DNA of 64,000 nt from assembly GCF_003334785.1 (NCBI RefSeq), contig NZ_QOWV01000003.1; one strand, written 5' to 3'. Source of the DNA: Escherichia coli (GTDB lineage Bacteria > Pseudomonadota > Gammaproteobacteria > Enterobacterales > Enterobacteriaceae). Below, piece after piece: positions 58,250 to 61,010 of the stretch; position 1 is the stretch's first letter; each line of letters starts with the position of its first letter. The position numbers were made by a program, and so were the translations under genes. The notes beneath the pieces are model-generated. The model searched no databases. It was not told the DNA's origin and worked only from the letters and a program-made list of their open reading frames with translations.

Positions 58250-58385
58250 CTTAGCCTGATATAGTGTGCGTAGGCCGGATAAGGCGTTCACGCCGCATCC
58301 GGCATTTGAGCATAGTGCCTGATGCGACGCTTGATGCGTCTTATCAGGCCTACAGGTGCACCGCATCCGGCAAACCATACTCACA
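58250..58385. repeat. REP/BIME cluster between mpl and yjgA
   Basis: Several REP units (GTAGGCCGGATAAGGCGTTCACGCCGCATCCGGCA etc.). Confidence 0.75.
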
Positions 58386-59044: not shown

Positions 59045-60397
59045 ATGGCACTTGCAATGAAAGTAATCTCTCAAGTTGAAGCGCAGCGCAAGATTCTGGA
59101 AGAAGCAGTTTCCACTGCGCTGGAGTTGGCCTCAGGCAAATCGGACGGTGCGGAAGTTGCCGTCAGCAAGACCACCGGCATTAGCGTAAGCACGCGTTAT
59201 GGTGAAGTGGAGAATGTTGAATTCAATAGCGATGGCGCGCTGGGGATCACTGTTTATCACCAGAACCGCAAAGGTAGCGCATCATCCACCGATTTAAGCC
59301 CGCAGGCCATTGCCCGTACTGTACAGGCGGCGCTGGATATTGCCCGTTATACCTCGCCAGATCCCTGTGCCGGCGTGGCAGACAAAGAGCTGCTGGCCTT
59401 TGACGCACCAGATCTCGACTTGTTCCACCCTGCGGAAGTTTCCCCGGATGAAGCCATTGAACTGGCGGCCCGCGCAGAACAGGCGGCATTGCAGGCGGAC
59501 AAACGCATCACCAATACCGAAGGTGGCAGCTTTAACAGCCACTACGGTGTCAAAGTTTTTGGCAACAGCCACGGCATGTTGCAGGGTTACTGCTCAACGC
59601 GTCATTCGCTCTCCAGCTGTGTAATTGCCGAAGAAAATGGCGATATGGAGCGTGATTACGCCTACACCATTGGTCGTGCGATGAGCGATCTGCAAACGCC
59701 AGAGTGGGTTGGGGCCGACTGTGCTCGCCGTACTTTATCGCGCCTGTCACCGCGTAAACTCTCCACCATGAAAGCGCCGGTCATTTTTGCCAATGAAGTG
59801 GCAACCGGGCTTTTTGGCCATCTGGTGGGGGCGATAGCGGGTGGATCGGTTTACCGTAAATCCACCTTCCTGCTGGATTCGCTGGGTAAACAAATTCTGC
59901 CGGACTGGCTGACCATTGAAGAGCATCCGCATCTGCTGAAAGGGCTGGCATCGACGCCATTTGACAGCGAAGGTGTGCGCACCGAGCGTCGCGATATTAT
60001 TAAAGATGGCATCCTGACTCAGTGGCTGCTGACCAGCTACTCGGCGCGGAAACTGGGGCTGAAAAGCACCGGACATGCGGGCGGTATTCACAACTGGCGG
60101 ATTGCCGGACAAGGGCTAAGCTTCGAACAAATGCTCAAAGAGATGGGTACCGGGCTGGTGGTGACGGAGCTGATGGGCCAGGGCGTGAGTGCCATTACCG
60201 GTGATTATTCCCGTGGTGCAGCGGGCTTCTGGGTAGAGAATGGCGAAATTCAGTATCCGGTTAGCGAAATCACCATCGCAGGTAATTTAAAAGATATGTG
60301 GCGCAATATTGTCACCGTCGGTAACGATATTGAAACACGCAGTAATATACAGTGTGGTTCTGTGCTGTTGCCGGAGATGAAAATCGCCGGGCAGTAA
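59045..60397 (+). CDS. pmbA: metalloprotease PmbA (TldE)
   Basis: 450-aa ORF recognised as PmbA. Confidence 0.92.
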
Positions 60398-60473
60398 AAA
60401 ACTGGCGCGACCTGCCGCGCTATAAACTAAAAAATTACACAAAATCATTCGCACTGCATCGAGACGGAAAGTG

Positions 60474-60521
60474 AATGAGGGCCGGGGAGCGTACTCGCAG
60501 TACGTGACCCGGGCGAATGAG
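60474..60521. repeat. small palindromic element (CCGGG...CGTACT-CGC-AGTACG...CCCGG) flanked by direct repeats GAATGAG, upstream of cybC
   Basis: Nested inverted repeat and 7-bp flanking direct repeats read directly from sequence. Confidence 0.4.
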
Positions 60522-60576
60522 CGTAGCCGTCGATGAGGCAGTGTGAAGGATGAAGTGTAAATAAAAAAGGAAGTGA

Positions 60577-60966
<390 letters not shown>

Positions 60967-60974
60967 TTCCTCAT

Positions 60975-61005
60975 TTCCCTGTTGCCTGCACTCAGGTAAC
61001 AGGGA
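60975..61005. terminator. hairpin CCCTGTT...AACAGGG between convergent cybC and nrdG
   Basis: 7-bp stem read from sequence; flanks not strongly T-rich. Confidence 0.4.
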
Positions 61006-61010
61006 ACTTA

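Follow-up and report, generated by a model that had tools for sequence, protein, structure and literature searches.

An ERIC-type palindromic repeat between pmbA and cybC of Escherichia coli and its filled and empty alleles

ERIC elements are imperfectly palindromic repeats of about 127 bp, and they are generally taken as non-autonomous miniature inverted-repeat transposable elements (MITEs). The family, which also bears the names IRU and RU-1, was reportedly described by Sharples and Lloyd in 1990, by Hulton et al. in 1991 and by Wilson and Sharp in 2006. It has been known since 1990-91, and the element analysed here is nothing new in kind. Three reviews (PMC2229807, PMC2759123 and PMC3184786) present ERIC as a MITE with terminal inverted repeats, TA termini and TA duplications.

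The palindrome studied here lies in the spacer between pmbA and cybC, within a window of 64,000 nt that is the whole stretch of DNA analysed. Like ERIC/IRU/RU-1, it is 127-128 nt long, forms an imperfect palindrome with a conserved central inverted repeat and is colinear with the family throughout; it also has TA-containing termini, sits between co-oriented genes, is present in multiple copies in E. coli and shows presence/absence polymorphism between strains. With the REP/BIME sequences it shares an intergenic position, a palindromic structure, a multi-copy state and probable co-transcription; however, REP units are ~35-40 nt long, follow another consensus (GCCGGATGCGGCG-type) and are usually clustered, and the window element holds no such sequence. 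An initial annotation of this window, which had picked out only the centre of the palindrome, was right to say that it is not a REP sequence: the element consists of one 128-nt unit alignable with ERIC, and REP-type sequence was found only at ~58250-58385. This REP/BIME-like cluster, in the mpl-yjgA spacer (window 58250-58385; GCCGGATAAGGCG..., GCCTGATGCGACGCT..., GCATCCGGCA), accounts for the spurious ORFs of the 'RIRRSRRIRH' type that the ORF list contains.

Other described repeats are more distant. YPAL, RU-2 and RU-3 (Delihas 2007) are likewise small palindromic intergenic repeats of enterobacteria, but their lengths (168 and 103 bp) and sequences are different, whereas RU-1 can be aligned with the window element over the entire length. 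The Correia/NEMIS elements of Neisseria and the RUP elements of S. pneumoniae are given in PMC2229807 as ~100-160 bp long, with terminal inverted repeats and TA ends or duplication, co-transcribed and open to RNase processing. The window element resembles these MITEs in its terminal inverted repeats, its TA-containing ends and its long predicted RNA hairpin, but the sequences are unrelated, the hosts are different, and the IHF sites and promoters of Correia elements were not seen in the window element.

Position and family assignment of the palindrome

The window is E. coli chromosome, and the gene order around the element fits the MG1655 map as well as thousands of E. coli genomes. The neighbouring ORFs are mpl, yjgA, pmbA and cybC, followed by nrdG and nrdD, which are convergent with cybC. 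The features of the 182-nt pmbA-cybC spacer that houses the element, and of its two flanking genes, are as follows.

59045-60397, + strand: pmbA (tldE), from the ORF list
60403-60422, + strand: GC-rich hairpin, 5 nt past the pmbA stop codon; context, outside the ERIC element
60434-60561, + strand: complete element of 128 nt assigned to ERIC/IRU/RU-1, boundaries +/-2 nt, from consensus alignment, profile search and strain polymorphism
60435-60460, + strand: outer left arm with the terminal inverted repeat TACACAAAATCATTC; 26-nt arm, 77% complementary to the right arm
60473-60479, + strand: left heptamer GAATGAG, inside the ERIC left arm; exact direct repeat
60482-60512, + strand: ERIC core hairpin CCGGGGAGCGTACT-CGC-AGTACGTGACCCGG; inverted repeat with a perfect stem at 60490-95 / 60499-504
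60515-60521, + strand: right heptamer GAATGAG, inside the ERIC right arm; exact direct repeat
60535-60560, + strand: outer right arm, ending in GAAGGATGAAGTGTA (TGAAGGATGAAGTGTATA in other copies); pairs with the left arm
60562-60582, + strand: A-rich tract, Shine-Dalgarno region (AAGGAAGTGAG) and cybC ATG; context, conserved, unpaired with ERIC in the folds
60580-60966, + strand: cybC, an intact ORF of 128 aa

The element starts 36 nt past the pmbA stop codon and ends 18 nt before the cybC ATG, in an A/T-rich tract between the hairpin near the pmbA stop and the ribosome-binding site of cybC. The sequence AATAAAAAAGGAAGTGAGCAATG is conserved in Escherichia, Citrobacter, Kluyvera, Kosakonia, Lelliottia and Salmonella.

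Two hairpins lie outside the element. The one at 60403-60422 has a T-run on the minus strand only, according to the terminator scan, and is terminator-like only on that strand, where no gene would use it; it is also found in the empty-site allele of E. coli and in Citrobacter amalonaticus, which has the identical GGCGCGACCTGCCGCGCC hairpin. Because its counterparts next to the pmbA stop in Kluyvera, Pluralibacter and Kosakonia are followed by a T-run on the plus strand, the E. coli hairpin may be a decayed pmbA terminator. The second hairpin (TCCCTGTTGCC...GGTAACAGGGA, at 60971-61009) stands between the convergent cybC and nrdG genes and is probably a terminator common to both; the one Rfam match of the whole scan, mir-51, falls there and is meaningless (16.9 bits versus a gathering score of 70).

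The initial annotation had described, at 60474-60521, an inverted repeat enclosed by 7-bp direct repeats ~60 bp upstream of a complete cybC. Such an arrangement is indeed present, as an exact GAATGAG pair around CGTACT-CGC-AGTACG, although its true start is one base earlier, at 60473; its end is 58 nt from the cybC ATG (60580), and the cybC ORF is complete as described. The perfect 6-bp inverted repeat CGTACT/AGTACG (60490-95 and 60499-504, with the 3-nt loop CGC) extends to 14-nt arms (60482-95 and 60499-512) that are 79% complementary. The chance of finding so small a pattern was estimated with first-order Markov sequences of 64 kb, in which a hairpin with a perfect 6-bp stem, flanked no more than 25 nt away by an exactly repeated 7-mer in direct orientation, occurred 1.8 times on average; 82% of the random sequences held at least one. 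The small motif alone is not beyond chance, and what is far beyond chance is the ~128-nt palindrome around it.

The family assignment rests on several comparisons. Table 1a of Delihas 2007 (PMC2759123) supplied the 127-nt consensus published for ERIC (RU-1) of E. coli and the SeRU-1 sequence of Salmonella. The window element is identical to the former at 85 of 129 positions (66%) with one gap, and it aligns colinearly over its full length with both; the alignment score of 39 compares with -13.2 +/- 5.3 for shuffled sequences, about 10 sd above. An nhmmer family profile, built on eight sequences that included the window copy and the K-12 copy, gave one match in the 64-kb window, at 60427-60571 (E = 1e-40). 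Furthermore, a 128-bp presence/absence difference between strains falls at the 60434-60561 borders. The plus strand of the element, which has the orientation of the Wilson & Sharp consensus, is the sense strand of both pmbA and cybC.

Copies related to the element are widespread in the species. A 136-nt query over the palindrome matched all 5,426 complete E. coli genomes, with between 1 and 6 matching places in a genome (median 3), and the published consensus used as query matched a median of 13 places per E. coli genome (range 2-22). Similar full-length copies were found in other intergenic regions of E. coli, of which those at queA-acpH, hsdM-hsdR, puuR-puuC and rhlB-gppA are the closest to the window copy within ERIC (69-79% identity over ~125 nt, end to end). 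Copies at yeiL-psuT and ybhJ-ybhI were inspected as well; four of the five top matches of the consensus were the ybhJ-ybhI copy in different strains, so that these matches gave two new loci in all. The classic ERIC core (CCCCAGGAGCTTACAT / AAGTAAGTGACTGGGGTGAG) is seen in the copy at queA-acpH, and the core hairpin of the window copy at 60482-60512 corresponds to the conserved core CCCCAGGAGCTTACAT / AAGTAAGTGACTGGGG. The left terminus is kept in five E. coli copies as TATACACAAAATCATTC, the shared termini being TATACACAAAATCATTC ... TGAAGGATGAAGTGTATA, and in the terminal inverted repeats of the window copy (TACACAAAATCATTC ... GAAGGATGAAGTGTA) TA is found at each end of the paired termini. 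Unlike the consensus, the window copy has a loop that is one base longer, a degenerate form of the outermost TATA (left end ATTA, right end TAAA) and neither of the ERIC-PCR primer sites: no ERIC1R-complement or ERIC2 site was found in the window with three or fewer mismatches.

Judged by these alignments, the window element is an ERIC/IRU element of a divergent subfamily. The view that a small element of mobile origin is present here holds insofar as the element is structured and repeated, but the unit is a 127/128-bp ERIC and not a 48-bp mini-element. K-12 has this copy too, and an earlier cataloguing of it is therefore almost certain; papers retrieved by searching the literature for cybC together with ERIC were irrelevant.

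The GAATGAG heptamers and the predicted fold

The two heptamers of the window copy have counterparts in the consensus and in the copies at other loci, where the left and right blocks read as follows.

Consensus: GAGTGAA (left), GAGCGAA (right)
puuR-puuC: GAGCGAA (left), GAGCGAA (right)
hsdM-hsdR: GAGCGAA (left), GAACGAG (right)
queA-acpH: GAATGAG (left), GAGTGAA (right)
Window copy: GAATGAG (left), GAATGAG (right)

In an alignment of eight sequences, positions 1-2 and 5-6 of the heptamer (G-A) are invariant in both blocks, and the four heptamer Gs are at least 90% conserved among 14 sequences; conservation of the heptamers is weaker among degenerate copies from Citrobacter and Salmonella. Because they occupy fixed columns ~39 nt inside each end of the element and match the same purine-rich heptamer in other copies and in the consensus, the GAATGAG repeats are an intrinsic feature of the ERIC family and not the 7-bp target-site duplication for which they had been taken. 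An insertion of a ~48-bp palindromic mini-element that duplicated a 7-bp target GAATGAG would agree with an exact 7-nt direct repeat around a hairpin, in a region that is polymorphic for presence/absence among strains. Nevertheless, the unit that varies between strains measures 128 bp instead of 42-49 bp, with borders ~39 nt beyond the heptamers; independent ERIC copies from other loci, as well as the consensus, have heptamers and core in matching register; and chance alone would give the small pattern ~1.8 times per 64 kb. The data from this locus contradict such an insertion, and we consider it extremely improbable.

The whole spacer is predicted to fold as one long hairpin (~60435-60562). 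For the element alone, the plus strand gave -63.8 kcal/mol against -32.5 +/- 3.4 for shuffled sequences (z = -9.2), which bears out the suggestion of the initial annotation that a stable structure might exist here. The fold of the minus strand reached -44.1 kcal/mol, and the plus strand is 20 kcal/mol better through G-U pairs and purine mismatches. RNAalifold, applied to eight copies, returned 43 consensus pairs, 18 of them with compensatory changes on both sides, including alignment pairs 51-77, 52-76 and 58-70 in the core. On this consensus structure, 92.7% of the cells were paired, as compared with 32-44% when the partners were slid by 1-3 columns, and the covariation score of 0.341 was reached by 0 of 500 shuffles (0.160 +/- 0.019). 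As palindromic DNA repeats can keep their complementarity for DNA-level reasons, these compensatory changes alone are no proof that the RNA is under selection.

In the predicted fold, the central dinucleotides of the two heptamers pair with each other (A-U/U-A in the window copy and G-C/U-G in the consensus). The antiparallel 5'-GA-AU-GA-3' arms would form two Watson-Crick pairs flanked by tandem G.A/A.G mismatches. Tandem mismatches of the 5'-GA-3'/3'-AG-5' type are stable in RNA, and we infer that this stability would account for direct repeats within a stem-loop.

Filled and empty alleles in E. coli and the spacer in other species

A 701-nt query across the spacer divided the E. coli alleles into a full-length class, a K-12 class and a two-piece class, the last of which spans 573 nt instead of 701. 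A copy with >80% identity to the 136-nt query was missing from 1,547 of 5,432 records, which corresponds to ~28% empty and ~72% filled alleles. An empty site, as might be looked for by comparing the pmbA-cybC spacer among strains, does exist in other E. coli strains: M505 and MRY15-117 have a 54-nt spacer, 128 bp shorter, in which the pmbA hairpin is followed by CAAATCTTCATAATAAAAAAGGAAGTGAGCAATG. The K-12 class carries a 26-bp deletion (window 60573-60598) that takes the end of the Shine-Dalgarno region and the ATG and first codons of cybC. With this deletion, cybC is annotated as a pseudogene in K-12 MG1655 and its derivatives; the gene is intact in the window strain, BL21, CFT073 and O157.

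The 128-bp difference between the filled and empty alleles fits 126 + 2, as a TA target-site duplication would give, but 13-15 nt of the left flank differ too (TATAAACTAAAAAAT in the filled allele versus CAAATCTTCATAA in the empty one), and the junction is no clean insertion footprint. TAAAAAA is found on both sides of the ERIC element (60428-60434 and 60562-60568), which may be coincidental in a tract so rich in A or may go back to a longer duplication made at insertion; ERIC is reported to duplicate only TA. The empty junction is identical in M505, the cybC of which is identical to that of the window, and in MRY15-117, the cybC of which has CFT073-type substitutions. Because one and the same empty junction is found on two different cybC haplotypes, recombination has moved both spacer states between backgrounds. 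The empty allele looks like a retained or re-imported ancestral allele, since it resembles the spacers of other genera, namely that of Lelliottia V86_10 (TCTTTCATAATAAAAAAGG, which matches the E. coli empty allele) and that of C. amalonaticus. Excision of ERIC was considered as the origin of the empty allele and rejected, because this allele has flanks of the ancestral type and not of the filled type.

Some strains show further changes next to the spacer. In MRY15-117 (L007), the sequence past window position 60972 is unlike the cybC-nrdG junction and no nrdG is annotated in the stretch examined, which suggests an insertion or rearrangement downstream of cybC. In E. coli O26 RM10386 and another strain (H89 and H90), the query match ends at 515, inside cybC, and falls in two places, suggesting that cybC is interrupted there, perhaps by an IS.

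To place the insertion in a wider frame, species-representative genomes were scanned with a degenerate cybC pattern, which yielded 38 loci (E. albertii, E. fergusonii and E. marmotae were not retrieved). The pmbA-cybC synteny is kept in Citrobacter, Kluyvera, Kosakonia, Lelliottia, Pluralibacter, Enterobacter and Salmonella; in these genera the two genes are separated by short spacers of 27-100 nt with the conserved AATAATAAAAAAGGAAGTGAGCA at their end, and most other genera have cybC but not the element. The same ERIC as in the window, identically placed and oriented and 95-97% identical, was found in E. whittamii, Escherichia sp. E1V33, Escherichia sp. MOD1-EC7003 and E. coli E69. The insertion is old, before the diversification of these Escherichia lineages, because the copy is common to E. 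whittamii, E1V33, MOD1-EC7003 and E. coli.

A different ERIC occupies the pmbA-cybC spacer of S. enterica subsp. diarizonae (L041), Citrobacter sp. MGH106 and Citrobacter sp. Res13 (L043, L033). It is 80-85% identical to the consensus but only 60% identical to the window copy, points the other way and directly follows the stop codon of pmbA. Since this Salmonella/Citrobacter ERIC differs in both sequence and orientation, the spacer has been colonised by ERIC at least twice. Several Citrobacter species have only an internally deleted remnant of ~43 nt in which the two ERIC ends are joined. Other palindromic insertions were seen in the same spacer in Lelliottia nimipressuralis (L024) and C. amalonaticus S646 (L046); one is a ~70-nt element with the ends TACCCGTC...GACAGGTAT, and the other is ~130 nt long and has a second GC-rich palindrome.

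Predicted expression and likely effect of the element

Scans of 60200-61100 gave no sigma-70-like promoter and no terminator on the plus strand, the only terminator candidates being on the minus strand. As pmbA and cybC lie on the same strand and neither a promoter nor a plus-strand terminator is predicted, the element most probably forms part of a read-through transcript of pmbA and cybC or of a cybC leader RNA. Within such an RNA it would form a long autonomous hairpin.

A question raised by this prediction, and by the initial annotation, is whether the hairpin acts as a structured regulatory RNA for cybC. A dedicated cis-regulatory RNA (riboswitch, attenuator or thermosensor), or a transcription terminator of pmbA, would be in keeping with the very stable sense-strand hairpin in the cybC leader and with its covarying base pairs. 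On the other hand, an Rfam 15 scan of 59800-61200 found nothing that overlaps 60398-60579 even at E <= 10, and no T-run follows the hairpin. It does not pair with the Shine-Dalgarno sequence or the ATG, the same sequence family adjoins unrelated genes, and 28% of E. coli, like most other genera, have cybC but lack the element. A role of this kind is very improbable, and the element is not a dedicated cybC switch. Occlusion of the cybC Shine-Dalgarno sequence by the hairpin was rejected as well: this sequence and the ATG are unpaired with ERIC, and the local fold around the Shine-Dalgarno sequence is the same in the filled and empty alleles.

The closest precedent for an effect on mRNA comes from Yersinia, where, according to PMC2229807, PMC2759123 and PMC3184786, a co-transcribed ERIC alters the stability of the flanking mRNA in an orientation-dependent manner via RNase E; orientation-dependent effects of ERIC on the levels of flanking Yersinia mRNA are attributed to De Gregorio et al. 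2005 in PMC2229807 and PMC3184786. By analogy, the likeliest effect of the window element would be none, or a modest one on mRNA processing or stability.

A stronger version of this idea is that the MITE relic has been exapted, so that its hairpin, in the orientation seen in the window, materially changes the fate of the pmbA-cybC mRNA. Processing by RNase E or RNase III at the hairpin could uncouple pmbA from cybC, or the hairpin could protect the cybC segment by serving as its stabilising 5' stem, and selection on such an effect would explain the long-lived filled/empty dimorphism. Besides the Yersinia findings, the coincidence of the more stable RNA strand with the sense strand, the 95-97% conservation of the copy across Escherichia species and the persistence of both alleles on several haplotypes speak for it. 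Against it, ERIC copies elsewhere are found in either orientation with respect to the adjacent genes, and the opposite-orientation copy of other genera has decayed to ~43-nt remnants, which argues for neutrality. We regard exaptation as rather unlikely. Given the decay of the copy in other genera and the lack of the element in 28% of E. coli, the window copy is most likely a near-neutral relic. Overall, it is very probable that the motif is the central stem-loop of an old, dimorphic ERIC copy, with heptamers that are intrinsic to the family, and that this copy is likely transcribed, with no effect or a modest one.

A more far-reaching proposal joins two parts, namely that the GA-NN-GA heptamers are a conserved structural module of ERIC and that the pmbA-cybC spacer is a recurrent landing pad for ERIC; taken jointly, we consider it distinctly unlikely. 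If true, the module would consist of two tandem sheared G.A/A.G pairs around a 2-bp helix and would point to selection on an RNA or on a protein-recognition site, beyond plain palindromy. The landing pad, if real, would mean independent insertions in opposite orientation in Escherichia and in Salmonella/Citrobacter, together with a trans-species filled/empty polymorphism in Escherichia that is kept by recombination and possibly by selection on cybC/pmbA expression.

For the locus itself, the right label is an ERIC/IRU repeat, and not a new mini-transposon or regulatory RNA, which is of little import beyond annotation. The absence of ERIC1R and ERIC2 sites (three or fewer mismatches) from the window copy means that ERIC-PCR does not sample every ERIC locus. 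The conserved GA-NN-GA heptamers are a possible structural motif that is worth examining, and the natural filled and empty alleles on near-identical backgrounds offer a handy test of whether a co-transcribed ERIC hairpin affects the expression of neighbouring genes in E. coli.
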